Below are positions 9,313-63,545 of a stretch of 64,000 bases of DNA, one piece after another (within the stretch, counting starts at the first letter, position 1; each line of letters opens with the position of its first letter). Origin of the DNA: Oligoflexales bacterium (GTDB lineage: Bacteria > Myxococcota_A > UBA9042 > DTJE01). A program made the position numbers and the translations under genes. The notes beneath the pieces are model-generated. The model did not search any database, had not been told where the DNA came from, and saw only the letters and a program-made list of their open reading frames with translations. Location of the stretch: NCBI GenBank assembly GCA_012840965.1, contig DUVQ01000098.1, forward strand, positions 2,059-66,058, given 5' to 3'.

Positions 9313-11157
9313 ATGTACGCAAATCAGTCAAAGAAGATGGCCAAACTTGGCACCCTGTTTTTCGTCACCTTTGCGGCCTTTGTGGCGGCCCTTTTTCCAT
9401 CCCTCGATCCCGACACTTATTTTCATCTTGCAGCAGGCAGGGATATAGCAACAACTGGAGTTATCCCAAGAACTGAAACCTTATGTTTTTGGGCAGCTGG
9501 TGAGCCCTTTATTAATCATGAATGGCTGTTTGACCTTTTGGCATGGTGGTCTTTTGATTTTGGTGGTGAGATTGGAGTCTCCCTTTTCAGGGCCACCCTG
9601 TCTGGGCTTTTATTCCTATTGGCGGCTTTGGTCGCCTTTCGCCTTGAGGCTGCTTGGTGGGCCACGTTGGCCACTTCCATCGCGTTTTTGCCCATTTTCA
9701 GGCCGTCTTTGGAGCTTCGCCCCCATCTTGCTGGATACACACTCGCGGCAGCGGCTCTTTTGGTGTTCCTGAATAAAAACGTCACCATCTGGCGAACCAT
9801 CGCCCTGATTATCATTGCAGTGGTCTGGGCTAACTCTCATGGTTCTTTCCCCTTGGTAGTACCGCTGATTATTTTGTGGGCCTTAATGCCAGTTACAAAG
9901 CAAGACCACGCCCTGGAACGACCAAAGCGCCTAGGAGTGGCTGCCTTAGCTGGCCTTTCAACGCTAATCAACCCCTGGGGCTTTGGCCTAGTTAAGACCG
10001 TTGTTTATCACACAGACAGCAAAATAACGGCCATGGTTCCTGAATGGTGGCCTATCTCTTGGGGTGAGCAGCCAGCTTTTGATGCGCTTTTATTGGCCTT
10101 GATCGCAGGGACGTTACTGTCGTTTCTCCCCAAAAAAAACAGGCTGCGTTTTGCTGAAATTGGCTTGGTTTTGCTGTTTTTAATCCCGGCTGTGAAATCT
10201 CAGAAATTCGTCTTGGGTCTAGCTGTTGGATTGGCACCTGTTATGGCGGCTAATCTTTCAAGGGTGCTCAACTTCCGGTTGACAACAAAACTATCCATCA
10301 GTGCTGCATCCGTCCTGATTGCTGGATTGGCAGGCTCGGTAATCCATCCGTCCACTAGTTTTGGGTTTGGTTTTGATAAAACCGAGGCACCCTTTGATGC
10401 AATCGACTGGGCCAGCAAGGCAAATGTAGGCGGCAAGTGGTTTAACCCCTTTGACCGAGGTGGCTTTTTGGCTTGGTCAGGGCAAAAACCAATCTTGGAT
10501 GGCCGTGCATATGTCCACGGTACAGATCGCATCCTGAACTTTGTGTCTGCTTTGGCTAATCCCTTAAATTTCCAACAGATGCACCGAGTTTTGGGTTTTG
10601 ATGCAGTGTTAGTCGATTATCATGACACGGCGTTTCCTGTGTTAACCGAGTACCTACTGCAATCTAATGACTGGGCCTTGGTCTGGCTTGACAATCGTTT
10701 CGCAATATTTGTCCCGGCAAGTAAAGCCCAAAGTCTGGACTTACCCACCTTCAAGGTATTACTTCCACAGGCCAACCCTTTGTATCTGTTTGATTTGCCA
10801 GACTCGGACGTCGCTAAAGCCAGGGCCGAAACAGATGGACCGTCACAATCCACGCTAGGCAAACCATTGTCCTTACTGGTCAAAGGATTACTAGATCTAA
10901 AAGAAGCAGGCCTAGGCTGGGCACCAATAGATGCAATCAAGTCCCCAACAAAGCCAGAGTTTTGCAAAACAGCTGCGGACAGTTTGAAACAACTAGTATC
11001 ACTAGAGCCAGACACTCCAATGTATCGCTATTTCTGGGCTATCTCCCTAGTTTGCAACGACCAATGTGAAGAGGCATTACACCAAGTCAACAAAATTCAA
11101 GACTTCCCAGATGCCAAAGGCCTAAAAATCTTAATTGAAAGGGGAGAGTGCCCCTGA
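9313..11157 (+). CDS. large polytopic membrane protein, possibly a GT-C-fold glycosyltransferase (ArnT/PMT-like; inference)
   Basis: More than 12 predicted TM helices and about 610 aa. Divergent from the aminotransferase/epimerase operon. No named motif was verified. Start uncertain (9280 TTG, 9313 ATG or 9337 ATG). Confidence 0.45.
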   Translation: MYANQSKKMAKLGTLFFVTFAAFVAALFPSLDPDTYFHLAAGRDIATTGVIPRTETLCFWAAGEPFINHEWLFDLLAWWSFDFGGEIGVSLFRATLSGLLFLLAALVAFRLEAAWWATLATSIAFLPIFRPSLELRPHLAGYTLAAAALLVFLNKNVTIWRTIALIIIAVVWANSHGSFPLVVPLIILWALMPVTKQDHALERPKRLGVAALAGLSTLINPWGFGLVKTVVYHTDSKITAMVPEWWPISWGEQPAFDALLLALIAGTLLSFLPKKNRLRFAEIGLVLLFLIPAVKSQKFVLGLAVGLAPVMAANLSRVLNFRLTTKLSISAASVLIAGLAGSVIHPSTSFGFGFDKTEAPFDAIDWASKANVGGKWFNPFDRGGFLAWSGQKPILDGRAYVHGTDRILNFVSALANPLNFQQMHRVLGFDAVLVDYHDTAFPVLTEYLLQSNDWALVWLDNRFAIFVPASKAQSLDLPTFKVLLPQANPLYLFDLPDSDVAKARAETDGPSQSTLGKPLSLLVKGLLDLKEAGLGWAPIDAIKSPTKPEFCKTAADSLKQLVSLEPDTPMYRYFWAISLVCNDQCEEALHQVNKIQDFPDAKGLKILIERGECP

Positions 11158-11300
11158 TCCTGTCCCTGGCCCTAGTGACCTGATCCTGTCCCTGCCCCTG
11201 TCCCTGCCCCTAGCCCTGTCCCTGTCCCTGATCCTGTCCCCGCCCCTGCCCCCTTCTCCCTTCACCCTTCACCCTTCCTCCCACCCCCGCCCCCGCCCCC
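11158..11300 (+). repeat. C-rich (CCCTGY)n low-complexity repeat tract (copy R1 of the dispersed family)
   Basis: cctgtccctgcccctgtccctgcccctagccctgtccctgtccctgatcctgtccccgcccctgcccc... lies directly after the stop of the upstream gene. Confidence 0.9.
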
Positions 11301-11362
11301 AAACTTGGGTCTTCCCTCACTTACCTGTAGAATATAACGAGCTGTTTGAGGTTGAAGCCAAA

Positions 11363-12079
11363 TTGTCCAGTGACGCTCCAGGTGGCCCCCCAAAACCGGA
11401 AAACTACCTTCAGCTTGTCCGAGGCATCGCAGCTAGCATCATCGGTAAGCTACCGCCAAACTATACCCTGGACGAGTTGGTCAGCGCTGGCATGATTGGC
11501 CTAATGGATGCCTGCCGCCAGTTCGATCCCGCAAGGGGTGTCCCCTTTGAGCGATTCGCAGAACATCGGATTAAAGGGGCTATCCAGGATGAACTTAGGG
11601 CCCGAGATGAAACCTCTAGGGCCGCCCGCAGACTGGCTAATCGGGTTGACCAGGCCAAGCACCACCTTTCCAATCAGCTGGGACGCGTGCCATCGTCTGA
11701 AGAAATTGCCAAGGAAATGGGCATGACCCTTGAACATTATCAAAGGCTTGAGGCCCAAATGAACCAAGTGGTCGTCCTTGGTTTTGACGATATGCTAAAA
11801 GCCAACGACACCACGAGGCAGCAAGAAACCGTTTATCCAGTGGATCCTGATGCAACCGACCCTGAGGAACACTCGCTGAGAAAACAGGAGATGCTAAGGA
11901 TTATTGAAGCGTTAGAACAATTGACCCCAAAGGAAAAAACGGTCGTTGTCTTATACTACTTCAAAGGTGTTTTGTTTAAGGATATCGCCATGTTACTTGA
12001 TGTCACAGAGGGACGAATCTCGCAGCTTCATACAGCGGCCATGGGGCGTCTTAAAAAGCTGATGGATAAAAGGATCTAA
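11363..12079 (+). CDS. fliA: RNA polymerase sigma factor, FliA/WhiG (sigma-28) family
   Basis: Region 2 ...LDELVSAGMIGLMDACRQFDPARGVPFERFAEHRIKGAIQDELR... and region 4 ...KEKTVVVLYYFKGVLFKDIAMLLDVTEGRISQLH.... The track ORF (11135) reads the repeat tract as LSLPLSLPLALSLSL. I placed the start at the in-frame TTG at 11363, which gives a FliA-sized 238-aa product. Start is uncertain. Confidence 0.7.
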   Translation: MSSDAPGGPPKPENYLQLVRGIAASIIGKLPPNYTLDELVSAGMIGLMDACRQFDPARGVPFERFAEHRIKGAIQDELRARDETSRAARRLANRVDQAKHHLSNQLGRVPSSEEIAKEMGMTLEHYQRLEAQMNQVVVLGFDDMLKANDTTRQQETVYPVDPDATDPEEHSLRKQEMLRIIEALEQLTPKEKTVVVLYYFKGVLFKDIAMLLDVTEGRISQLHTAAMGRLKKLMDKRI

Positions 12080-12121: not shown

Positions 12122-13927
12122 ATGCCTGAACAAAAAGGTAAATTGACACAGTTAATAAATGATTATCTGGCCACAGCCCAACAAAACGAGTCAGATGCCT
12201 ACAAATGGCTTGTTGAAAATGGAATGCAAGGCTGTTTGGCCAAGTACCTGGCAAACGCCGGGGCACCTGAAATTCAAACTTTTTTGAACGATGTCTTTAG
12301 AATTGACCGCGAGTGGCTAAAGCGGCATCGAGAAGCCAAGTCAGCTTTGACCAAACCAGCGATTACTTCGTTGTCAGTACTTCCCCCCTTTCTTTTAGAT
12401 AAAGAAAACAAGGAGCGACTGGAACTAATAGGCAAAACTTCGCTGAAAAATGGCCGTTGGGGAGTTTTAATCTTTTCAGGTGGCGCCGCAACCAGATTTT
12501 TTTCAGATAGCGCACTTAAAGACAAGGTTAAAAGCTTAAAAGGGCCAATTCCTAAAGGGCTTTTTCCACTAACACCTGTCCTGGGGTTGCCTTTTTTAGA
12601 CTTTTTTGCCGCCCAGATGCTGGAAATTGGAATTGAGACAGGTACCTTGCCGCCTCTTATCCTGATGGTCAGCAGTGAAACAGCCGACGCGATTAAGGCG
12701 TGGAGGCCGCACTATCCAGCTGAGGCGTTAATCATCATAGAGCAGGCCCGCCATCCGCGTCTTGATGAGGACGGAGATTTGGTAGCACACCCAGATGGCA
12801 GGCTGGTGCAAACTGGAGACGGTCATGGAGGGGTGTTCAAGGCGCTGCAGCAGCCGCGAGCAGGAGGGGATGGAGGCAGGGACAGGGACAGGGGTGCTGA
12901 AGGCAAGTCCGTGTGGGGCGGGGAGCCTCAGCCAGGAGACAGTGCTATGGACAAGCTTTTGTCGATGGGTGTTGATTCCATAGTCATGCACAACGTCGAT
13001 AATGCCGGGGCAAACGCGCTTGAGGCCGGTCGCTTGGGATGGTTCATTGATTCGAACGTTTCCTTTGGAATGACTGCAGTTGAAAGAACCAAGGTTGCAG
13101 AAAAAGTTGGAATTATCGCAGTTGATGACAGCGCGGATCGTGTGGACGTCGTTGAGTATTCAGTATGCCCTCCAGAACTGGCCACAGCAGCCGATTCTCA
13201 AGGACAACCAATCTTCAAATTGGCCCACATCAACACCAATCTTGTAAAGCTTGATTCAATAAATGCTGACCTGCCACCCACCTTGTACAGTGGAAAAAAG
13301 GTATCAGTCGGCGGCCAGACCATAGTCACAAGTTCCCTAGAAATGCTCAATCAGCATCTGGCAAAGACCCTACCAAAACAAAAGGTTGGCGTAATTTTAA
13401 TGAAGCGTGACGAAAGCTTTATGCCAACCAAGAGCATTTCCGGAGAAGATTCGTTAGAAAGCACTCAAGCAACTATGGCCCGCTTGTGGAAAGAGCGCCT
13501 AATCCAAGCCGGCGGCCAGGCAAGCCACGACGCCATGATCGAGCTTTACCCATCTTTTACACCGCCTGGTCTTTGGGCGAAAGGCTGGCAAATTGGTGAT
13601 GGAGCAACGTTAGCATTGGCCATAAAGCATGGAACTGAAAACCATTTTTTAGGAACAAACCTAGTTTTGGAGTCAGGCGCCAAACTAAGCATCACGGCGC
13701 AAAACCCTTATGGAGAAATAAGATACGCTGCCAAAACCAGAAAAATATCAGCCGACCCCAAAACCGCTGCGAAAGTAAGCCTAGGTAACAACGTCAAATT
13801 ACTTTGCAATGTGTCCATAAAGGTGCACATAAATGGAAGCGGAGTTTTGGTAATAAAAGACGGCCATATCTTCGATCAATCACAGACTTTGATCATAAAT
13901 TCGGGCGAAGTTTACCAGATAGGTTAA
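12122..13927 (+). CDS. UDP-sugar pyrophosphorylase-family (UDPGP/UAP1-like) nucleotidyltransferase with a C-terminal beta-helix-like tail
   Basis: ...VLIFSGGAATRF..., ...LILMVSSETADAIKAW... and ...RLVQTGDGHGGVFKAL... align with the UAP1/UGP G-loop, TSE and GNGG motifs. It carries an in-frame G-rich repeat insertion (12863-12897). Confidence 0.6.
   Translation: MPEQKGKLTQLINDYLATAQQNESDAYKWLVENGMQGCLAKYLANAGAPEIQTFLNDVFRIDREWLKRHREAKSALTKPAITSLSVLPPFLLDKENKERLELIGKTSLKNGRWGVLIFSGGAATRFFSDSALKDKVKSLKGPIPKGLFPLTPVLGLPFLDFFAAQMLEIGIETGTLPPLILMVSSETADAIKAWRPHYPAEALIIIEQARHPRLDEDGDLVAHPDGRLVQTGDGHGGVFKALQQPRAGGDGGRDRDRGAEGKSVWGGEPQPGDSAMDKLLSMGVDSIVMHNVDNAGANALEAGRLGWFIDSNVSFGMTAVERTKVAEKVGIIAVDDSADRVDVVEYSVCPPELATAADSQGQPIFKLAHINTNLVKLDSINADLPPTLYSGKKVSVGGQTIVTSSLEMLNQHLAKTLPKQKVGVILMKRDESFMPTKSISGEDSLESTQATMARLWKERLIQAGGQASHDAMIELYPSFTPPGLWAKGWQIGDGATLALAIKHGTENHFLGTNLVLESGAKLSITAQNPYGEIRYAAKTRKISADPKTAAKVSLGNNVKLLCNVSIKVHINGSGVLVIKDGHIFDQSQTLIINSGEVYQIG
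12863..12897 (+). repeat. G-rich repeat copy embedded in-frame in a CDS (ggaggcagggacagggacaggggtgctg)
   Basis: Same family as the intergenic copies. It encodes the low-complexity GGDGGRDRDRGAEG between conserved UDPGP blocks. Confidence 0.8.
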
Positions 13928-17838: not shown

Positions 17839-18918
17839 ATGAGACGTTTGGTTCTTTTAGCGATTTTACTTTTGCTGCCAAGCCACGCTTTTGCCCACGC
17901 TGGTATTATTTCGGGAGTCGAGAGACAAAAACTGACTGTTTCCAGGAGTACCTGGAAGTCTGAGGGGCGAACACTCACGGCAAATCTGCTTTTTGTGCGC
18001 CACCAGTTGGAACATATCGGAGTTAATGTCCCTGAATCGGTAGATTTCGAAGGTGGGGTTAACGAAGAGGCGGTCAAAAAGGCGTTAATCGACAAGATTG
18101 TGGTAACGCGCCAAGGAAAAGCTTGTGACGCAGTGACGATTGTATCTGGAGACACCAAGGACCAAGTGACAACCCAAATACAGTGGCAGTGTCCTGGTGG
18201 CAGTGAGCCTATTTTGGTAACCCTAGGATTTTTTGATATTTTCGATCCAGATCATCGGCATCTGGCTTCGATTTCTGATGAATCAGGGGCCAGAACCGAG
18301 GTGCTTGGCGCTGCAAACCCTGTCGTCAAGATTACGGCTGCTCCCGGGGTTTCAAGCTGGCTTTCATGGTCATTTTTTAAGTTGGGAATCGAGCACATCC
18401 TGATTGGATGGGACCATCTTTTGTTCCTTTTTGCTTTGATCCTGCTAGGTGGAACTTTTAAATCACTTTTTGGAACGATTACCGCCTTTACTATTGCCCA
18501 CTCGATTACCCTTGCCCTTGCCGCGTTGGAGATTTGGACGCCTGGGCCAGCAATCGTGGAGCCGATGATTGGTGCGACTATCGCCTATGTGGGTTTTGAA
18601 AACCTGTTTTTGAAGGAGCCTAAAGGGCGCTGGCGGATTACATTCCTGCTGGGACTAATCCACGGGTTTGGGTTTGCTGGAGCGCTTATAGAGGTTGGAA
18701 TTGCTCAAACCCAGTTGGCCACAACCCTGCTTATGTTCAACTTAGGTGTTGAGGTCGGCCAACTGATGGTTTTGGCGGTGTTTTTACCGCTTGTTTTACT
18801 TGCGCGTCGTAGTAAATGGGTTGTGAATAGAGCTGTTCCTGTACTGTCGGCCGGGATTGGGGGCACTGGCTTGGTCTTGGCGATAATGAGGATCGTTGAG
18901 GCGGTTGGTAGGGGATAG
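17839..18918 (+). CDS. HupE/UreJ-family membrane protein with N-terminal periplasmic domain
   Basis: Signal peptide MRRLVLLAILLLLPSHAFA. C-terminal ...HILIGWDHLLFLFALILLGG...TIAHSITLALA...LLGLIHGFGFAGAL resembles HupE/UreJ metal-transporter helices. Confidence 0.55.
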   Translation: MRRLVLLAILLLLPSHAFAHAGIISGVERQKLTVSRSTWKSEGRTLTANLLFVRHQLEHIGVNVPESVDFEGGVNEEAVKKALIDKIVVTRQGKACDAVTIVSGDTKDQVTTQIQWQCPGGSEPILVTLGFFDIFDPDHRHLASISDESGARTEVLGAANPVVKITAAPGVSSWLSWSFFKLGIEHILIGWDHLLFLFALILLGGTFKSLFGTITAFTIAHSITLALAALEIWTPGPAIVEPMIGATIAYVGFENLFLKEPKGRWRITFLLGLIHGFGFAGALIEVGIAQTQLATTLLMFNLGVEVGQLMVLAVFLPLVLLARRSKWVVNRAVPVLSAGIGGTGLVLAIMRIVEAVGRG

Positions 18919-18975
18919 TGGGGCAGGGGCGGGAGGTAGGGGCGCGGAGTAGGGTGGTTGGTTTGGGCGGGATTT
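18919..18975 (+). repeat. G-rich repeat copy R2 (G-quadruplex-capable)
   Basis: gggcaggggcgggaggtaggggcgcggagtagggtggttggtttgggcggg, between convergent genes. Confidence 0.85.
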
Positions 18976-21222: not shown

Positions 21223-21310
21223 TTGCACAAAAAATGAGCGAGTTTTTTGTTTGTTTGCACATTTTTAGAGCGAGTTTTTGCTCCATTTGCACAAAAAATG
21301 AGCGAGTTTT
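21223..21310. repeat. three tandem 31-32-bp repeats (TTGCACAAAAAATGAGCGAGTTTT...)
   Basis: Copies at 21223-21246, 21255-21279 (degenerate) and 21286-21309, in the region upstream of the pseudogene start and 3' of tRNA-Cys. Confidence 0.8.
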
Positions 21311-21517: not shown

Positions 21518-21574
21518 AGGAGCAGGGACAGGGGCAGGGAGCGGGGAGCAGGGACAGGAGGCAGGGACAGGGCA
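21518..21574 (+). repeat. G-rich repeat copy R3
   Basis: ggagcagggacaggggcagggagcggggagcagggacaggaggcagggacaggg, between tRNA-Cys and the nucleotidyltransferase gene. Confidence 0.85.
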
Positions 21575-21647
21575 ATAATTGCTAGTTTTGATGCTGCTAT
21601 TAACATCATTGGGTTGACTTCTTTATGGTATCTGTTATGTTGATACT

Positions 21648-22187
21648 ATGAGGCCACGGGAGACCATAGAGCAATTTGATCTCTTCCTAAAAAAGCATGG
21701 ACTTTCCTTGTCGGCTGTCATCATCGGCGGCTCGGCTTTGTCTTTGTTAAGGGTTATCTCCCGCGAGACGCGAGATTTTGATGTGCTCCACCCGCCACTG
21801 ACGGGCGAGATTATCAAGGCGCAGGCCGCCTTCGCCGCAGAGATGCGTAGACAGGGCATTCCACTTGATGATCACTGGTTGAATGATAACCCCGTGTCGG
21901 TGGCCGATCTGCTGCCGGAGGGGTGGCTTTCCAGGACGCAGGTTGTGTATCAGGGAAGCGCTGTGACGTTGTTGTCGCTTTCCAGAGACGACATGCTGCT
22001 GACCAAGCTCTTCGCTTATTGTGATCGTGGGACGGATTTGGGAGACTGCTTGGCGCTCAAGCCGTCCGCCGATGAATTGCGAGCGTCTTTACCCTGGATC
22101 GTTAAACAGGACGCCCACCCTGACTGGCCCAGTCATGTTGAAGAATCCATTCGAGAGTTGGCTAGGAGGTTGGGCCATGAGCTATAG
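21648..22187 (+). CDS. Pol-beta-superfamily nucleotidyltransferase-fold protein (AbiEii/MNT-like)
   Basis: hGGS-x13-DxD signature IIGGSALSLLRVISRETRDFDVL. 179 aa. Stop overlaps the next gene. Confidence 0.55.
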   Translation: MRPRETIEQFDLFLKKHGLSLSAVIIGGSALSLLRVISRETRDFDVLHPPLTGEIIKAQAAFAAEMRRQGIPLDDHWLNDNPVSVADLLPEGWLSRTQVVYQGSAVTLLSLSRDDMLLTKLFAYCDRGTDLGDCLALKPSADELRASLPWIVKQDAHPDWPSHVEESIRELARRLGHEL

Positions 22188-22860
22188 TCGCAGCATTGCC
22201 CCTAGCGCCGTACCTGACACTGAGATGCTTTCGTCTATGATGGCCGGGATTGGTATGAATGTCGCGACTACGCCTGACTGGAACGCCAATATTGAGGATA
22301 CTCTGTACTTCGCCAGTATCGAAGGGATGGAGCATTACGATCTACGCACCCTGTCCCTTGTCACGCAATGGCTTTCTGTTCATCTGCGTAGAGTCAACGC
22401 TGACCGCATAATCCGCGTGATTTCCGCCTGTCCTTTTGAACGAGTGCGTTCCTACTGGAAGGCTGTGGCTGTTTGGCAGTCCAAGGATAGGCGACTGGTG
22501 CGCCTCTTAGATACTTACCGTGGTTCTCGGATCGACCTACTGCCCTCGGGAACGGACTTCCAAATCAGTCGGTGCGGCGAAGATACCCGTTTTGTAAATG
22601 GGCCACTTCGCGTTCCAGCTGGAACACTGCGGGAGCGTGAGTCGGACATCCTGAGTCCACAGGAGCTTGCCTCCCGCCACCCTGCCTATCGTTGGCGCAT
22701 TCTCGTGGGACCTACCTACCGTGCCGACATGCTGGCACATCTCGAAAACAACCCCGGTCTATCAGCTTCGGAACTGGCTCGACTAGCCTACGGCTCTTTC
22801 GCCACGGCCCACGAGGTCAAGCGGGATTGGAGCGTCCTTTCGATGACACAGTCTGTTTGA
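22177..22860 (+). CDS. hypothetical protein, partner of the nucleotidyltransferase-fold protein
   Basis: ATG at 22177 is preceded by AGGAGGT and overlaps the upstream gene by 11 nt. 227 aa with no recognised motif. The track start at 22021 is over-extended. Confidence 0.5.
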   Translation: MSYSRSIAPSAVPDTEMLSSMMAGIGMNVATTPDWNANIEDTLYFASIEGMEHYDLRTLSLVTQWLSVHLRRVNADRIIRVISACPFERVRSYWKAVAVWQSKDRRLVRLLDTYRGSRIDLLPSGTDFQISRCGEDTRFVNGPLRVPAGTLRERESDILSPQELASRHPAYRWRILVGPTYRADMLAHLENNPGLSASELARLAYGSFATAHEVKRDWSVLSMTQSV

Positions 22861-22870
22861 CGGGAATTAT

Positions 22871-22898
22871 GGCGGGAGGCGGGGACAGGGGCAGGGCC
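22871..22898 (+). repeat. G-rich repeat copy R4
   Basis: ggcgggaggcggggacaggggcagggcc, directly after the stop of the partner gene. Confidence 0.8.
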
Positions 22899-38429: not shown

Positions 38430-38661
38430 TACCTGACTCCCTCCTTTCATAAGACATCGCATAATTTCATTGAATGGGTAATTCTTGATGAGCTCGGTGC
38501 CAAGGTCTATTTGGCAGTGAGGGCCTTTTAGACAATCAACTGGATGCTGCCAAGCTTGATCTTTAAGATAAGGAACAAGTAGTTGAAAGATAAATGTGTT
38601 TTTAGGTAGAATTTACAATTCCAGTGGCCCTTTGGCAGTCTACTCCAAAGGAGATTCAAAA

Positions 38662-39789
38662 ATGCGTCGACGTGGCTTGTTAATCGTTTGCCTGTTCATG
38701 GCGGGCTCATTTGCAGCGTGCGGTGTTGACAAGAAAAACCAAGAAGTTCCCGTTGACACGGTTGAAACTGGCGATGGTTTCAGCTGTGATCCTGGGAAGG
38801 AGCCGGGGGAAGATTTGGAAGAAGAGCCCGGGGAAGCGCCTGGAGAGGATCCGGGACAAGAGCCTGAACAAGACCCGGGACAAGAGGCCAGCGAGCCGGC
38901 AAAGGTGCTGGAACGTGGTGACTGCAAATCATGTACAGGCGATGATGACTGCAATGAAGGCTTTAAGTGCCTATCTTTGGCCTCTGAAGACAAATACTGC
39001 CTGCGTCCTTGTGAAGAGCACAAGGATTGTTTGCCTGGCTACCAGTGCTTTCAGGCCTCAAGCGTTCTCAAGGCTTGTGTTCCAAACACTTACAACTGCG
39101 TACCATGCGCCTTTGATGCGCCATGTGACGAAGGCATGTGTTGCGACTTTGGCTCCGGCCAGTGTTGGGAATGTCGCCAGCAGTGTGATCGATGCATCTA
39201 TGACAGCAACTGTGCCGGCGACATGCGGTGCTTTAAAAAGGCTGGTAGTCCGGTTGGTGTTTGCGTTGAAGAATGCGAGAAGCAGGAATGTTCTGACACC
39301 ACCAATTTTACGTGCAGCCCCAGTTTCAACAATATTCAGGTGTGCCAGCCAAACGACGTCTATTGTGGCGGTTGCCCAGATGGTACCTTTCCGTTGCCTG
39401 ATGGAACTGGCTGCGTTGAGTGTCTTGACAGCAGCCATTGTGATGACGGTATTTGTGATTTGATTACTTATACTTGTGACTATTCCGAGTGTCCTTCCCA
39501 CCTACATATGTGCGATGACGGTCAATGTCACACGTGTTGTGAAGACGCTCATTGCGTGTGTGAGGGTGGTGGTACTGGCATTTGTAGGTCGAATTTCGAA
39601 TGTGAATGCTGCTCCACATGCGATGATAGTGACTGTAGAGACCCGTATCCTGTGTGCGCTAAGGTTGATGGGGTTGAGATGTGTGTTCAGTGCAAAGAGG
39701 ACGCTGACTGCCATCGCATCAATGAAGCCTGCATTTGTACCCCTGTGTACGCATGTGAGTTTTCCGATCATACGGCATGCACAAAATAG
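38662..39789 (+). CDS. Cys-rich lipoprotein, paralog B (375 aa)
   Basis: ATG at 38662 has the same leader and RBS as paralog A. Signal MRRRGLLIVCLFMAGSFAAC, acidic PGE/PGQ repeat, and a core about 330 aa long that is colinear with A. Confidence 0.75.
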   Translation: MRRRGLLIVCLFMAGSFAACGVDKKNQEVPVDTVETGDGFSCDPGKEPGEDLEEEPGEAPGEDPGQEPEQDPGQEASEPAKVLERGDCKSCTGDDDCNEGFKCLSLASEDKYCLRPCEEHKDCLPGYQCFQASSVLKACVPNTYNCVPCAFDAPCDEGMCCDFGSGQCWECRQQCDRCIYDSNCAGDMRCFKKAGSPVGVCVEECEKQECSDTTNFTCSPSFNNIQVCQPNDVYCGGCPDGTFPLPDGTGCVECLDSSHCDDGICDLITYTCDYSECPSHLHMCDDGQCHTCCEDAHCVCEGGGTGICRSNFECECCSTCDDSDCRDPYPVCAKVDGVEMCVQCKEDADCHRINEACICTPVYACEFSDHTACTK

Positions 39790-42312: not shown

Positions 42313-43530
42313 TCAGACTCTGTTTAGAAGGTGCCCCATTCTGGTTTTTTTAGTTGCAAGATAGCGCAGAGCTTTGGGGCCTCGTGCTGGGATTTCAATA
42401 GGCACTCGCTCAACTATTTCAAGGCCGTACCCGGCTAGTCCAATGATTTTTTGAGGGTTGTTGGTCAGCAAGCGCATCTTTTTGATGCCCAGGTGCGCCA
42501 GGATCTGGGCGCCAATCCCATAGTCTCGAAGATCGGGGGCAAAACCAAGGTGAGTGTTGGCGTCGACTGTATCGAGACCTTGGTCTTGGAGTTCATAGGC
42601 TTTGAGTTTGTTCAGGATGCCGATGCCGCGCCCTTCTTGTCGAAGATAGAGCAGGACTCCGCCTTCTTTGGAAATCTGTTCAAGGGCGGCTTTCAGTTGT
42701 GGGCCGCAATCGCATCGTCTGGAGTGAAAGACGTCACCAGTTAGGCATTCAGAGTGGACCCTTACAAGGATAGGGGTGTTGCTGGAAATATCGCCTTTTA
42801 CCATGGCGATGTGGGCGGCTTGTGCGACTGAATCTTCGTAGACAATGCTTTTAAATTCGCCGTGTTCTGTTTGAACTGTGGTTGTACCTACTGGGCGTAC
42901 CAAAAGTTCTTTTCGCATCCTGAAGGCGATTAAGTCTTGGACTGTGATTATTGGGATGCTTTTTTCCTGGCCGAGGGCAAGTAGGCTGTCCAAGGTCGCT
43001 GCATCGCCGTTGTCGTCAAGTACCTGACAGATTACTGCTGCGGGTTTTAGTCCTGCGAGTCTGGCGAGGTCGACGGCTGCTTCGGTTTGGCCGGCTCTTT
43101 TTAGGACGCCGCCTGGTACGGACCGCAGGGGGAAGACGTGGCCTGGGACTACAAAGTCGTCTAGGACGGCGTCGTCGTGAAGTAGTAGTTCGACAGTTTT
43201 GGCTCTGTCAAAGGCGGATATGCCGGTGGTGGTGACAGCGCGGCCGTCGACTGAGACTGTGAAGGCGGCTTGGAAGTGGGCGGTGTTTCTTTGGACCATC
43301 ATTGGGAGGCCAATTCGATCAATCATGTCGTGGCTCATGGCGACGCAGACTAGGCCGCTGGCGATTTTGGTTATTTCATTGATAATCTCAGCGGTTGCCA
43401 TTTCTGCGGCGACGATTATATCGCCTTCATTTTCGCGACTTTCGTCGTCGACGACGATGACCATGCGGCCCATTCGTAGGGCTTCAATTGCAGATTCAAT
43501 TGACGAGGTAATTCTTACAGCATCAACCAT
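42313..43530 (-). CDS. ribBA: bifunctional 3,4-dihydroxy-2-butanone-4-phosphate synthase / GTP cyclohydrolase II
   Basis: ...[22 protein letters not shown]... (RibB) plus a C-terminal GTP cyclohydrolase II domain. Start at the internal Met MVDAVRIT.... Confidence 0.85.
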
Positions 43531-43606
43531 GAACGAACTCCAAAGCAGGTCCCAAACAAGGCGCGAGATGATACCACGCACCATCGATCACGACAAAACT
43601 GGTCTT

Positions 43607-43646
43607 GCCCCTGGTTTTGGCCCTGGCCCTGTCCCCTGCCCCTGCT
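43607..43646 (+). repeat. C-rich repeat copy R6 (G-rich on the ribBA-sense strand)
   Basis: cccctggttttggccctggccctgtcccctgcccctgc, inside the ribBA 5' leader. Confidence 0.8.
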
Positions 43647-43649
43647 ACA

Positions 43650-43980
43650 GATCCTGCTAATTTGTCTGTTATGACTCCTGATTGTTTGTTCTTTTTTGCG
43701 TTTGATCTCTTCGTTACAGTTGTAAAACACGTCCCGGGGGCATCCTTCCGGACCCAAAATCTCCCGTAGCCACCCCGACTGTCTCTTAGTGACATCGTCC
43801 GGGCGAAATACACGATTGCTAATGTGTACGTTTATCCTTTTGGCCCGGACGGAGTGCTGCGCACTCTTCAAGTCACCTAAGAGACGTCGGGTCCCGGCAA
43901 CTCCCGATAGCGCCCTCCAGGATTGCCCCCGGACCATGTTGCAGGGTGCCCTCTCGACCTTCTTTTAGCTCCAAATCCCG
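43650..43980 (-). other. structured non-coding region upstream of ribBA (candidate cis-regulatory RNA; family unassigned)
   Basis: Long-range inverted repeat cccgggggcatcc (43731-43744) / ggattgcccccgg (43921-43934), plus internal helices GTCCGGGC...GCCCGGAC (43797-43850) and GAGTGC-tgc-GCACTC (43850-43866). Not coding in any frame. Strand assumed from ribBA. Confidence 0.3.
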
Positions 43981-43984
43981 CTAA

Positions 43985-44040
43985 ACAGTACGATCATTTC
44001 CCTGCCTCCTGTTCCCTGCCTTCTCTGTCCCTGCCAAGAC
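43985..44040 (+). repeat. C-rich repeat copy R7
   Basis: ccctgcctcctgttccctgccttctctgtccctgcc. Confidence 0.75.
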
Positions 44041-44146
44041 TAGGCGGGTACGGTTTGGCGGTCGGTAATGATTGAGTTCAGGTTCGACATGTGCTATCAC
44101 CAAGCATCGGGTTTGGAATGGACCGTTGATTCTGTAGGGGTCGTTA

Positions 44147-45352
44147 ATGCGGGTCTTGCGATATTTGGCTGTACTTTCGCTAGTTTTCGCTATTATCGCG
44201 ATGATTGGTTGTGACGATTCTGCCCATCGAGCCCATGTTTTGGGGGGAGTGCCGCTGCCTTCTGATGATGAGCCGGATATCGTGTCAAAGCCTGATGAGG
44301 GCGGCGATACTGATGAGGGTTTTGATGTCGATTCATTGTGCGTGCCGGAGTGTGGGGACAGAGTCTGTGGCCCTGATCCCGTTTGCGGCAAGTCGTGTGG
44401 CACCTGTGATGCTTCCACAACTTGCAATTCTCAAGGCCAGTGTGAGTGTGTGAGAGACTGTACCGGTCGCGTTTGTGGTCCGGACCCTGTTTGTGGCGAG
44501 CCGTGTGGGGCTTGTGATGAAAACTGGGTCTGTGTTCTTAGTGGCAAGTGTATAGCCCCAACAGCCGACTGCAGCAACGGGTGGTGTTTGATTCCGTCAG
44601 GCACCTTTAAGATGGGTTCTTTAGGAGATGATCCTTACCGTGAACTTGATGAGGGGCCTGTTCATTTGGTCACGATTTCCCGCTCTTTTTACATGGCGCA
44701 GACGGAAGTCACTCAGGGCCAGTGGAAGTCCTTGATAGGCAACAATCCTTCTGAACATAGTGCCTGTGGGGATAACTGCCCTCTTGAGAACGTTAATTGG
44801 TATGAAGCCGTTCATTATGCAAATGCGCTTTCTGAGAGGGAAGGTTTTGAAACCTGTTACACGTTGAATGGTTGCAGTGGTACTGTCGGTTCTGGGGAAA
44901 GTAAGAACAATCTCTATCAATGTACGGTCACTTTTAAGGGACTTGGTTGTGCAGGTTATCGTTTACCAACCGAGGCCGAGTGGGAATATGCAGCCCGTGC
45001 TGGTACTTCTGGGCCTAGGTATGGCGAAATTGATGCCACAACTTGGTATTGGAACAACAGTTCAAACACTAGTCATCCGGTGGGTGGAAAGGCGGCAAAT
45101 TCCTGGGGCTTATATGATGTGCTGGGCAATGTATTTGAGTGGGTTTACGACTTTTACAGCGAGGACTACTACAGCACTTGTTCATCCAACTGCACAGATC
45201 CAACCGGACCTGCGACAGGCTTTAACCGGGTAAATCGTAGTGGCGGTTGGGGCAGCGACGAAAGCCGTACACGCGTGGTTTTTCGCAACAACTACTCGCC
45301 TGACGAACGCCGAGTCTATTTGGGTTTTCGTTTGGTGAGGTCCGCGCCCTAG
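44147..45352 (+). CDS. lipoprotein with two Cys-rich CxxCxxRxCGxDxxCGxxCGxC modules and a C-terminal FGE-sulfatase (SUMF1-like) domain
   Basis: Lipobox AMIGC. Modules CVPECGDRVCGPDPVCGKSCGTCD... and CVRDCTGRVCGPDPVCGEPCGACD.... FGE motifs ...HLVTISRSFYMAQTEVTQGQW..., YRLPTEAEWEYAARAG, ...GNVFEWVYD.... Confidence 0.75.
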   Translation: MRVLRYLAVLSLVFAIIAMIGCDDSAHRAHVLGGVPLPSDDEPDIVSKPDEGGDTDEGFDVDSLCVPECGDRVCGPDPVCGKSCGTCDASTTCNSQGQCECVRDCTGRVCGPDPVCGEPCGACDENWVCVLSGKCIAPTADCSNGWCLIPSGTFKMGSLGDDPYRELDEGPVHLVTISRSFYMAQTEVTQGQWKSLIGNNPSEHSACGDNCPLENVNWYEAVHYANALSEREGFETCYTLNGCSGTVGSGESKNNLYQCTVTFKGLGCAGYRLPTEAEWEYAARAGTSGPRYGEIDATTWYWNNSSNTSHPVGGKAANSWGLYDVLGNVFEWVYDFYSEDYYSTCSSNCTDPTGPATGFNRVNRSGGWGSDESRTRVVFRNNYSPDERRVYLGFRLVRSAP

Positions 45353-61103: not shown

Positions 61104-61205
61104 TTCTTTTTTGGCGTAAAAACCCTTAAAAAAGGGATAATCCCCATCTTGAAACAGTGTGAATCCTTTGATACTCTGCGTCGGAAACGTCTGATTGGGG
61201 GAATC

Positions 61206-63545
61206 ATGGACTGGGCTGTTCGACTTCCTGAGATTGGAGACAAGATTGGCGGTAGGTTTCGCATAGTTGCGATTAAAGGCTCCGGGCCGGTAGGCATGGT
61301 GTTCAAGGCCTTTGATTTGGCTTTGGACTTGCCTGTGGCAGTGAAAGTTTTTAATCCAGAGTTGTTTAGTTCCGCATTTAGGGAGCTGAATCTGCTGCGG
61401 CTGTACAGGGCCAGGACCCTACAAGACAGCAATCTGGTCAGAATTTTTGAGGTCATGGAAGAAGACGGCCTTCATTTTGTGACCAGCCAGTTAGTTGAGG
61501 GGATGTCCCTTAGGGCAGTGCTCGATCTGAGGGACGAAAGTGGTGAGCGATTTCCAGCGCCCAAGATTCGGTCGCTTGCAGAGTGGCTGATAGACGCTGT
61601 TGTCCCTATCCATAAACAGGGGATTATTCACGGGAATCTGAAGCCGGAGAACCTGTTCGTTTTACCGGACAAACTAATGGTTTCGGACCCTCACTACTTG
61701 GTCCTTAACATGCTTGTTGAGGGCCAGGAGATTCCAGCTACAGACTTTTATCGTGGTCCAGAGCAACTTACTGAACCGCGAATGGAATTGAAGCAGACTG
61801 ATGTTTACGCCGTCGCTTTAATCATAGGTGAGATTCTTGCCATTAATCCAGTAAGGGCAGGCGTTCCTCTTTCTGAACAAATTCCAAGGCTTACCAAGCA
61901 TCTTGATGATGTCTTTGTCAAGGCTACCCAAGACGACCCATTTGATAGGTACGATTCATTACAAAGCTTTGCCAAGGATTTAAGCAGTGCCTTTGCAAAG
62001 GTAGATGTTGACGGACTGTGGGTCCGCAGGATGCACGAGACAGGCTCGTTCAAGGCGTTAAGGATCGTCCAAGCTCCAGATGGTCAGCCAATTCCTCTGG
62101 TAGTGGAACCAACTGCTGTCACAGCCCCCGAGCCTGCCCCTGCTCCCGAGCCCGAGCCTGCCCCAGAGCCCGCCCCAGAGCCAGAGCCTGCCCCTGCCCC
62201 GGAGCCTGCACCTGTCTCTGCCCCCGCCCCTGATCCTGTCCCTGTCCCTGACCCCGAGCCAGAGCCCAACCCTGCTGACGAACTAGAGGAAGAGGGCATC
62301 GAATTCGATACAAATCGCATTGATGACTCGGACTTAGAGGGAATCGAGGTTGTCTTTAGCGCACCTGCAATGGATGATGAGGAAGATCTTGCTGTTGAGG
62401 AGACAGTAGAGCCCGTGGCACCGGAGCCCACCAAAGCCGGAAGGGGTAGAAAAGGGAAAAAGGGTAGACAGGCCGCTAGGGAGGCCGCTAAAGAGGCGGC
62501 AAGGGCCGCTCAAAAGGAGGAAGAACAGCCCCCACCTGCACCTGAACCACCTCCGGTTGTAGTTGCAGATGCCCCACCAGATGTGCCAGATCTGCTGTTG
62601 ACTACCCCACAGCGCAGACCCACTGGCCCCTTACCAAAACCACCTACCAGGCCTATAGATACCGGCACTGTAACTGTAATCAAAAAAGACGAGCCAAAAA
62701 GCGGAATTATGCGTTTTCTTTGGCTTATAGCGTTGGTGGTAGTGTTGGGTGGTGCTGCAACATTTTGGTACATGGGTAAATCTGATCCAGTGGAGGAGCC
62801 AGTCATTGCTGCTGTTGATGACCCAGCTCCTGCCCCGGCTCCAGCTCCTGAGCCTGCTGCAGCTCCGGCCCCAGCTCCGGCCCCAGCCCCTGAGCCCGCT
62901 GCAGCCCCGGCCCCGGCTCCGGCCCCAGTCCCTGAGCCTGCTCCTGCCCCCGAGCCTGTCCCTGCCCCTGAGCCCGCTGCTGCCCCCGAGCCTGAGCCTG
63001 TCCCTGCCCCAGAACCAGCCCCCGCTCCCGAGCCAGCCCCAGCCCCCCAAGGCGCCCTTTTAGCAGACAACCTAGTCTGCCCCGCGGGCATGGCGCTAAT
63101 CGTGCTGGATGAAACAGCCACTGTTGACTCCAAGGCCAAACCAAGCTCAGTAGGCTTTTGTATCGACACCCACGAATTTCCTGGAGCTGGTCAAAAACCA
63201 AGGGGCGGCGCGTCTAGGGCCACCGCAACCAGCTTGTGCAAAAAGGCTGGGAAGGCACTGTGCAGTAGCGCCCAATGGTTAAAAGCCTGCGAAACCGGCA
63301 CACCAGAGGCATCGAAGTGTAACGTGACAGGCGGCGTACAACCCGCAGGTTCCTACGCTGAATGCGTAACATCCAACGGTGTGTACGACATGATCGGAAA
63401 TGTTGGGGAATGGACCTCTGACAACTTCATCAGAGGCGGTGACACCAACGTTGGTGGGATTGGATCTTGTTCCTACAAAACTAAGCGTTTTAGCCCGAAA
63501 TCCACAGACGGATTCAGATGTTGTGCCAATCCTACAACTCGCTGA
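61206..63545 (+). CDS. Ser/Thr-kinase-like protein (predicted pseudokinase) with TM, Pro/Ala/Glu repeats and a C-terminal FGE-sulfatase-like domain
   Basis: G-loop IKGSGPVGMVFKA and VAVKV lysine are present, but the catalytic loop reads HGNLKPEN (not HRDLKPEN) and the DFG position reads SDP. A TM segment (LIALVVVLGGAATFWYM) separates two PAPEPEP tracts. C-terminus ...YDMIGNVGEWTSD.... Confidence 0.7.
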   Translation: MDWAVRLPEIGDKIGGRFRIVAIKGSGPVGMVFKAFDLALDLPVAVKVFNPELFSSAFRELNLLRLYRARTLQDSNLVRIFEVMEEDGLHFVTSQLVEGMSLRAVLDLRDESGERFPAPKIRSLAEWLIDAVVPIHKQGIIHGNLKPENLFVLPDKLMVSDPHYLVLNMLVEGQEIPATDFYRGPEQLTEPRMELKQTDVYAVALIIGEILAINPVRAGVPLSEQIPRLTKHLDDVFVKATQDDPFDRYDSLQSFAKDLSSAFAKVDVDGLWVRRMHETGSFKALRIVQAPDGQPIPLVVEPTAVTAPEPAPAPEPEPAPEPAPEPEPAPAPEPAPVSAPAPDPVPVPDPEPEPNPADELEEEGIEFDTNRIDDSDLEGIEVVFSAPAMDDEEDLAVEETVEPVAPEPTKAGRGRKGKKGRQAAREAAKEAARAAQKEEEQPPPAPEPPPVVVADAPPDVPDLLLTTPQRRPTGPLPKPPTRPIDTGTVTVIKKDEPKSGIMRFLWLIALVVVLGGAATFWYMGKSDPVEEPVIAAVDDPAPAPAPAPEPAAAPAPAPAPAPEPAAAPAPAPAPVPEPAPAPEPVPAPEPAAAPEPEPVPAPEPAPAPEPAPAPQGALLADNLVCPAGMALIVLDETATVDSKAKPSSVGFCIDTHEFPGAGQKPRGGASRATATSLCKKAGKALCSSAQWLKACETGTPEASKCNVTGGVQPAGSYAECVTSNGVYDMIGNVGEWTSDNFIRGGDTNVGGIGSCSYKTKRFSPKSTDGFRCCANPTTR

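Follow-up and report, generated by a model that had tools for sequence, protein, structure and literature searches.

We analysed a stretch of 64,000 nucleotides from the Oligoflexales bacterium contig DUVQ01000098.1 (hereafter the window), in which a gene for a UDP-sugar (UAP1/AGX-like) pyrophosphorylase of 601 aa (12122..13927, + strand) carries a short G-rich repeat inside its coding sequence. We consider that this feature is probably an in-frame hexanucleotide microsatellite, or coding variable-number tandem repeat (VNTR), of an (RGGGNC)n family, and that it occupies a disordered surface loop which tolerates insertions and deletions (indels). The coding tract is expansion-prone, as it exists in four in-frame length alleles among closely related strains. 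The insertion that holds it is missing from all the orthologues that we aligned, and its units are the commonest units of a repeat family that is dense in this genome.

The coding tract and its length alleles

The repeat lies in a lineage-specific insertion of 23 codons, AGGDGGRDRDRGAEGKSVWGGEP (aa 247-269; 12860..12928, + strand), which was delimited by its absence from orthologues and by low per-residue confidence (pLDDT) in a structural model. The initial annotation had described this insertion as 12-14 aa long, which is too short. It had also placed the string ggaggcagggacagggacaggggtgctg at 12863-12897; the string is present, but at 12872-12899, and the former range nearly matches the segment that encodes the peptide GGDGGRDRDRGAEG, aa 248-261 (12863-12904). 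As had been stated, this peptide forms a loop between the conserved TGDGHGGVFKAL block and the HNVDN block of the pyrophosphorylase. The hypervariable core of the insertion is the hexamer tract GGAGGC AGGGAC AGGGAC AGGGGT (12872..12895, + strand), which is read as G-G-R-D-R-D-R-G and was recognised by Tandem Repeats Finder (TRF), by a 15-mer match and by copy-number differences between strains. TRF reported 2.8 head-to-tail copies of CAGGGA with 100% identity at 12877-12893. In total, the window copy has four hexamer-like units, two of them perfect and two imperfect. Roughly half of the 23-aa insertion is thus hexamer repeat, and the remainder, GAEGKSVWG, is unique sequence. This non-repeat core (12893..12919, + strand) has hexamer-like sequence on both sides, and no second copy of the 27-33-nt core was found in the window or in 1.2 Mb of related loci.

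We determined the length alleles from the 90% clusters to which the two closest proteins belong and which comprise 26 members from NCBI, JGI, ENA and Logan assemblies (metagenome-assembled genomes of "Myxococcota bacterium"). The cluster proteins were aligned and then their DNA, and the backgrounds compared are at least 97% identical at the protein level. Four length alleles, A to D, occur among these strains, indicating a copy-number polymorphism. Allele A, with 74 nt between the anchors, reads GCA GGA GGG GAT GGA GGC AGG GAC AGG GAC AGG GGT GCT GAA GGC AAG TCC GTG TGG GRC GGG GAG and encodes AGGDGGRDRDRGAEGKSVW(G/D)GE; it is carried by the window and by the related loci L003, L004 and L009-L012, including contigs of 233 kb and 3.2 Mb. 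Allele B, with 65 nt between the anchors, lacks GGA and one AGGGAC unit relative to A, encodes AGDGGRDGGAEGKSVWDGE and was found in L001, L002 and L013-L015. Allele C (L005) has 53 nt of pure hexamers, ending in GGC AGG GAC AGG GAC GGG GAC AGG GAC GGG GAG, and encodes AGDGGRDRDGDRDGE; the 27-nt GAEGKSVW core is missing from it, with pure hexamers in its place. Allele D (L006-L008) consists of at least 13 hexamer-like units running to the contig end, and its peptide begins with AGGDGGGDRGGDGGRDGDRDRDGDR.

The frame is intact in the complete alleles A-C (594-601 aa) and in D as far as it is assembled, and every allele is backed by at least one independent assembly. Alleles A and B differ by 9 nt, which corresponds to one 6-nt unit and one 3-nt codon, and alleles A and C differ by 21 nt, a difference that also takes in the 27-nt non-repeat segment. 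When the window was compared with L001 across 200 nt, five of the seven differences fell inside the insertion. In allele D, every Arg is encoded by AGG and every Asp by GAC, whereas these codons make up 25% and 48% of their codon classes genome-wide. This monotony points to amplification of DNA units rather than to selection on the peptide. A phase-variable contingency locus was also considered; it was rejected because no frameshift separates the alleles and the 6-nt unit is a multiple of three.

On its own, the window copy is a modest repeat, since tracts of at least two units numbered 17 against 2.2 expected. Its membership in the family is indicated by the identity of its units with the commonest family units, by the expanded alleles of sister strains and by the lack of the insertion in orthologues. 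The (RGGGNC)n family itself is a true repeat family. The 15-mer GGGACAGGGACAGGG occurs 21 times in the window with up to two mismatches, against 0.17 expected, and none of 100 shuffles reached this number; tracts of at least three RGGRNC units number seven in the window against 0.01 expected. TRF detected arrays with periods of 6, 12 and 18 at 11149-11252, 21519-21572, 43599-43645 and 62124-63046. Among 1371 family units from 261 distinct tracts, AGGGAC (35%), AGGGGC (19%) and GGGGAC (15%) rank highest, and these are the very units of the insertion. The earlier statement that the coding repeat is the same unit as the intergenic repeats therefore holds. The tracts range from 2 to 23 units, and the copies have only the 6-nt unit in common.

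We searched 5.8 billion proteins and aligned sets of 30 and 88 sequences. The closest proteins are an identical one and a 98% relative, after which none exceeds 48% identity. The 23-residue insertion is absent in 87 of 87 orthologues (24-50% identity, syntenic where checked), as the initial annotation had predicted. In these proteins the loop between ...GGV(F/Y)(R/K)AL and the next helix has 0-10 residues, typically xPGxDGxS, and the window protein has 23 residues more. Six orthologues have small extra residues at the insertion point, so the site appears to tolerate indels. The orthologue loci and the window have in common a downstream ECF sigma gene, two small open reading frames (ORFs) and a ParAB/ABC/DegT neighbourhood, and we accordingly regard these proteins as true orthologues. 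An insertion of the same kind encoded by unrelated DNA in repeat-free genomes, which had been named as the refuting case, was not observed; the two orthologue loci examined (18 kb with 69% G+C and 15 kb with 54.5% G+C) contain no tracts of at least three units. A search of the contigs of GTDB representative genomes with the host protein gave no match, and the species is therefore absent from the representatives searched.

The host enzyme and the position of the loop

The host protein is a UAP1/AGX-like UDP-sugar pyrophosphorylase as judged by profile and fold, with a predicted nucleotidyltransferase activity on sugar-1-phosphate. Its ORF matches the Pfam family UDPGP (PF01704) with 65.5 bits against a cut-off of 22, and a profile search of the PDB found UDP-N-acetylglucosamine (UDP-GlcNAc) pyrophosphorylases (UAPs) at E=2.6e-62. 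The AlphaFold2 model, built on the 88-sequence alignment, has a mean pLDDT of 92.6 and a predicted template modelling score (pTM) of 0.92. Using Foldseek, this model groups with fungal, insect and human UDP-GlcNAc pyrophosphorylases (template modelling (TM) scores of 0.72-0.83, target-normalised; E=5e-27). On the one hand, the solved UAP1/AGX1 UDP-N-acetylhexosamine pyrophosphorylases (PDB 2yqs, 6tn3, 8yp3 and 1jv1) show the same fold as the host protein within this range of TM scores, and both have the GGxxTR motif, the GDGHGG/GNGG-type motif and the VDN motif. On the other hand, the identity between them is only 17-20%, and the host protein has an additional beta-rich C-terminal domain of ~130 aa. 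The two also differ at the loop site, which is a turn of 4-5 residues in the solved enzymes and 33 residues long in the host protein; in the best solved relative, the equivalent turn in the profile alignment is KNQG, with 4 residues.

Both flanks of the loop are conserved in the alignments of 30 and 88 sequences. The upstream TGDGHGGVFKAL block (12812..12847, + strand; aa 231-242) contains a nucleotide/sugar-binding "GNGG"-type motif and the start of helix 238-243, and its residues T231, G232, D233, G234, H235, G236, G237, A241 and L242 are invariant or nearly so. The same is true of H290, N291, V292, D293 and N294 in the downstream HNVDN block (12989..13003, + strand; aa 290-294). In the model, the insertion bridges two helices, one at 238-243 after the GDGHGG motif and one at 275-281. 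Only the repeat-encoded residues, aa 249-252 and 254-261, have a pLDDT of less than 50, and the means of the four 10-residue blocks over aa 241-280 are 76, 47, 54 and 90. Mapping the loop on a structural model, as had been proposed, thus placed the repeat-encoded residues in the only stretches of very low confidence, between two helices. Considering this predicted disorder together with the indel tolerance of the site and the conserved flanks, the loop would be peripheral, on the surface of the enzyme. For the enzyme, the repeat loop is probably neutral or almost neutral.

In the contigs of ENA that carry allele B (L001:829-2625 and L002:926-2722), the host gene was called as two ORFs of 64 aa and 523 aa. 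This split call suggests that, independently of the tract, the gene of that strain has an N-terminal disruption or an alternative start. In the orthologous loci L135 and L137, a GHMP (galactokinase-like) sugar kinase gene immediately precedes that of the pyrophosphorylase, an arrangement that fits a salvage pair. In the lineage of the window, a gene for a FliA-like sigma factor lies upstream of the pyrophosphorylase gene and there is no adjacent GHMP kinase.

Origin of the tract and alternative explanations

The length changes would arise by slipped-strand mispairing or by unequal recombination among the units, during replication or repair. With a 6-base unit, the products of slippage would mostly stay in frame, and selection would purge the others. 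The protein would cope with such changes owing to the position of the site, a short turn that connects two helices and lies off the conserved motifs. As for the first units, they may have grown in situ from the G/D codons of an ancestral ...PGxDG... loop or may have been seeded from another tract. A birth in situ is plausible, considering that the GGN-GAC-GGN-like codons of such a loop resemble the unit.

Folding of the G-rich strand, as a G-quadruplex (G4) or otherwise, may promote slippage. Known G4-forming G3N3 repeats include telomere-like hexamers and the G4 motifs of bacterial promoters. Like these, (GGGNCA)n is a textbook G3+N3 array, and G4 formation is here predicted from the sequence. 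The host coding allele of the window contains the motif GGGG-N9-GGG-N3-GGG-N3-GGGG (12866-12894), which fits a relaxed rule with loops of up to 12 nt; owing to its one 9-nt loop, it does not fit the strict rule of four runs of at least three G with loops of 1-7 nt. In allele D we read by eye many G runs spaced 1-9 nt apart. Several intergenic tracts fit the strict rule, and most of the strict G3+N1-7 motifs of the window lie in tracts, in the G/C-rich repeats of a kinase gene or in a short tract at 18911-18942.

Several observations weigh against the microsatellite explanation. The differences of 9 and 21 nt between alleles are not multiples of 6, as they include 3-nt indels of G codons and the gain or loss of the 27-nt core. 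Accordingly, slippage by one unit is not the whole story. The two perfect units of the window allele are few for a highly mutable simple sequence repeat (SSR). Allele C is known from one assembly, and allele D is incomplete, with contigs that end in the tract and with three assemblies that may share the same or related samples. The databases searched hold no intermediate relatives of 50-97% identity from which the origin and the age of the insertion could be traced.

Whether the repeat reached the gene as a mobile unit was a point of the initial annotation, which had called the family mobile or expansion-prone. The four in-frame alleles bear out the second term. The first, that is, a mobile or inserted copy at this locus, was not supported, as the insertion has no defined ends and its core is unique; a search for an inverted repeat in 12780-13000 and for a target-site duplication flanking the insertion found neither, and slippage in situ explains the tract equally well. 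No empty site exists among the close strains, all of which carry the tract, and the next relatives are at most 50% identical. A direct repeat with 13 of 15 matches, AGGGGTGTTCAAGGC / AGGGGTGCTGAAGGC (12829-12843 / 12890-12904), joins the conserved GGVFKA codons and the unique insertion core. An origin by local duplication from this repeat was set aside, as the repeat is too short to be told from chance in G-rich sequence.

A role of mobility in the origin of the tract is nevertheless conceivable in another form, in which a tract-associated mobile system seeded the coding tract and slippage followed. The seed would be a footprint or off-target product of insertion and excision, of ectopic recombination or of gene conversion. 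We regard this as rather unlikely, even though tracts flank a dispersed element of ~350 nt at ~50 loci, the element is present or absent at one site between strains, and two defence-type cassettes, one with DUF6036 (1.3 kb) and one with AbiEi/AbiEii (1.7 kb), are enclosed by a pair of tracts at sites where sister strains show just one tract. Six of ten large strain indels have tracts at both ends, compared with a per-position background of 3.5%; this figure is inflated because the set of loci was partly selected for the element. Alleles A and B, with hexamers on both sides of 27 nt, resemble in miniature the layout of a cargo between two tracts, and allele C has pure hexamers. However, the sequence of the element is found neither in nor next to the host gene, the core has no match in the related DNA and neither inverted repeats nor a target duplication accompany it. 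Moreover, deletion between direct repeats could account for all the tract-cargo patterns, including the single tracts of sister strains, without any insertion machinery.

A discrete mobile repeat, which would have transposed into the gene as one open-frame element, is far less probable. Such elements have a precedent in the Rickettsia palindromic elements (RPEs), which are discrete palindromic elements of about 100-150 bp with a conserved encoded peptide and which are inserted in frame in metabolic genes (PMC10969869). The hexamer family resembles RPEs and intragenic MITEs (miniature transposable elements with inverted repeats) in that it is dispersed, exists in many copies and lies in intergenic DNA as well as in frame within several unrelated metabolic genes, at sites compatible with the fold. 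Unlike them, it is a variable-number array of a 6-nt unit, repeated 2 to 23 times, without ends, palindrome, terminal inverted repeat or common full-length sequence, and the encoded peptides (RD, GT/GA, GQ/EQ or PV/PA) depend on the gene. We therefore do not consider it an insertion of the RPE/MITE type. It is equally improbable that a flexible G/D/R-rich loop was favoured for regulation or interaction, with the likeness to the repeat as a by-product of codon choice. All alleles do share the G/D/R-rich composition, and A and B have kept the GAEGKSVW core; however, the loop is absent from all orthologues, its length and sequence vary among near-identical strains, disorder is predicted for it, the restriction to AGG and GAC exceeds what codon usage would give, and the same motif yields unrelated peptides in other genes. 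Least probable of all is an artefact of assembly or sequencing in a metagenome bin rich in repeats. The tracts are frequent break points of short-read contigs, and L006 and L007 join the sigma gene to sequence resembling the window at ~43950, a junction that is now explained by a real copy of the element, seen in long contigs. Against an artefact, the window, two Logan assemblies, JGI contigs of 34-233 kb and an NCBI contig of 3.2 Mb all carry an identical allele A, and allele B is found in five ENA and JGI assemblies.

Accordingly, coding SSRs and VNTRs are the closest comparison for the microsatellite that we favour. In prokaryotic coding regions, in-frame SSRs and VNTRs are hotspots of slipped-strand indels (Lin & Kussell 2012, PMC3315296; Gemayel et al. 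2012, PMC3899988). The host tract has in common with them a short tandem unit in an ORF, lengths that differ from strain to strain, reversible indels and tolerance in loops or linkers. Classic bacterial SSRs are frameshifting on/off switches of mono- to tetranucleotides or long repeats of surface proteins, whereas the host tract is a frame-keeping hexamer in a cytoplasmic, housekeeping-type enzyme, and its unit is shared with hundreds of intergenic tracts in the genome.

Other tracts, the dispersed element and cassettes

The initial annotation had called the repeat family intergenic, and this holds for five other tracts of the window, whereas those at 62124-62260 and 62819-63046 are coding. 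The tract at 11150..11300 (G-rich strand -), between a 625-aa ORF and the FliA-like sigma gene, is hypervariable and is a site of presence or absence of the dispersed element in strain comparison. It measures 152 nt in the window and 56 nt in L005, a difference of 96 nt or 16 x 6; in L009 and L010, it reaches 441 nt and has an element of ~350 nt inside. A mechanical ORF at 11135-12079 runs through this tract as PLSLPLSL..., and the gene calls of sister contigs start the FliA-like sigma gene (238 aa) at the equivalent of 11363. Many short-read contigs of the organism end at this tract, and some end at the coding tract. The tract at 21518..21572 (+ strand) lies next to tRNA-Cys and forms the left boundary of a cassette of 1.3 kb, whose right boundary is the tract at 22871..22898 (+ strand). 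The tracts at 43599..43644 and 43998..44035 (both G-rich on the - strand, intergenic) flank a copy of the dispersed element, on its left and right side, respectively, as seen on the + strand.

The two coding tracts at 62124..62260 and 62819-63046 are read from the C-rich strand as PxPx linkers of a Ser/Thr kinase gene (61149-63545); the former (+ strand, with the string APAPDPVPVPDPEPEP) was identified by 15-mer matches and translation. The protein encoded at 61149-63545, with Ser/Thr kinase and FGE-sulfatase domains, contains a transmembrane segment that is flanked by two long linkers of low complexity (PAPEPVP). The in-frame family sequence of this gene reads PVPAPD.

In-frame tracts also occur in other genes. 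Among ~215 distinct tracts in the 1.2 Mb of related loci surveyed, 10 have a frame that stays free of stops for at least 80 codons in either direction. The initial annotation had suggested that the repeat can invade coding sequence without breaking the frame; in support of this, in-frame tracts are present in at least four additional genes, and length alleles exist for two of them. An unannotated ORF of ~600 aa has EGQEQGQGQG in one strain and EGQGQGQEQEQEQGQEQG in another (596 vs 607 aa), and the PAS region of a hybrid histidine kinase has TGPGTGTG or a longer TGAGTGTGPG... run (575 vs 597 aa). A 606-aa ORF has a (GA/GT)n run that links IspG/GcpE and HAD domains, and this IspG(GcpE)-HAD ORF may be a gene fusion via a former intergenic tract. 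One more ORF contains a GGRGGD tract. Three of these genes, the IspG(GcpE)-HAD ORF, the histidine kinase gene and the ORF of ~600 aa, are found at L019:1745-3562, L110:9000-10790 / L099 and L116:3959-5779 / L062. Depending on frame and strand, one DNA motif gives RD/GD, GT/GA, GQ/EQ or PV/PA peptides, with all three frames of the G-rich strand and the C-rich strand in use. A constant DNA motif with peptides that vary in this way argues for a driver at the DNA level, and one repeat process of this kind would write new variable peptides into ordinary enzymes, sensor kinases and domain linkers. It also affects the annotation and assembly of the lineage, with contigs that break at tracts, ORFs that are extended too far through them and protein clusters that split according to tract length.

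The dispersed structured element of the window (43645..43997, - strand; ~350 nt, with tracts on both sides at most loci) was delineated from metagenome copies, folding and G-C/G-U changes. A metagenome scan with one 24-mer of the element gave at least 119 matching stretches, and 75 copies with full flanks among the matches listed represent ~50 distinct loci. In the consensus, hexamer tracts lie on both sides with the junctions ...CCCTG|CTACAG...ATCGTC|TCCCTG..., and the alignment shows, by eye, terminal direct repeats of ~22 nt. The element occurs in a long form of ~350 nt and a short form of ~230 nt, with two alternative apical modules. The predicted fold is a long and imperfect hairpin, with a z-score of -5.9 for both strands and the - strand 15 kcal/mol more stable; on the - strand, three pairs alternate between G-C and G-U, one G-U pair is invariant and four pairs are doubly changed. 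Another copy lies at L009:8767-9151, and the element shows presence/absence polymorphism between strains. Rfam gave only tRNA-Cys over the whole window at the gathering threshold and no match over 43500-44150 at E up to 10. We accordingly excluded HEARO/omegaRNA, an FMN riboswitch and other curated Rfam families. The ORF at 42313-43584 beside the element was considered as an IscB, TnpB or IS110 transposase; it is RibBA. Among the ORFs next to other element copies, no candidate of transposase size was obvious, as judged without a Pfam run. The element is possibly a new family of non-coding RNA or a MITE-like family that targets CCCTG^TCCCTG.

The cassette at 21573-22870 (1.3 kb) contains a DUF6036 nucleotidyltransferase gene (21648-22187) and a 227-aa ORF between direct-repeat tracts. 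In L013 and L014, a single tract joins the same outer flanks. Conversely, L013:7930-9671 has a cassette of ~1.7 kb with AbiEi/AbiEii toxin-antitoxin genes between two G-rich tracts, whereas the same site in the window (about 18911-18950) and in L009 has one short degenerate tract, TGGGGCAGGGGCGGGAGG, directly after a HupE-like gene. It is possible, although we would not expect it, that the (RGGGNC)n tracts go beyond passive microsatellites and serve a genome-wide exchange system of this uncultured Myxococcota lineage as sites of landing or recombination. In such a system, the ~230-350-nt element and the AbiE and DUF6036 cassettes would be gained and lost between tracts, in-gene tracts would give rise to loops, linkers and fusions such as IspG-HAD, and the pyrophosphorylase loop would be a by-product. 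If this were true, it would represent a new way for a bacterium to organise its flexible genome, with tracts as recombination sites for an element and defence cassettes. Short repeats that bracket variable inserts and mark indel sites between strains are known from NIME/dRS3 of Neisseria and from enterobacterial BIME/REP, which have palindromic units of 20-40 bp, some with known recombinase or insertion sequence partners. The hexamer tracts resemble them in this layout; unlike them, the bracket is a microsatellite, and no enzyme was identified for it.

Many phyla have sporadic perfect (AGGGAC)4 tracts, at about one per contig, and hence it is not the motif itself but only its density that is lineage-specific. 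Distinctive here is that one hexamer family is dense and hypervariable, is used within several genes and is associated with a dispersed structured element. The window also contains other repeats. A 32-nt unit, TTGCACAAAAAATGAGCGAGTTTTTGCTCCAT, is present in 2.8 copies with 69% matches at 21223-21310, right beside tRNA-Cys. A repeat with a 24-nt period, GAACAAGACCCGGGACAAGAGCCT, occurs in 2.9 copies at 38818-38886 within the ORF at 38596-39789; it is coding and does not belong to the hexamer family.

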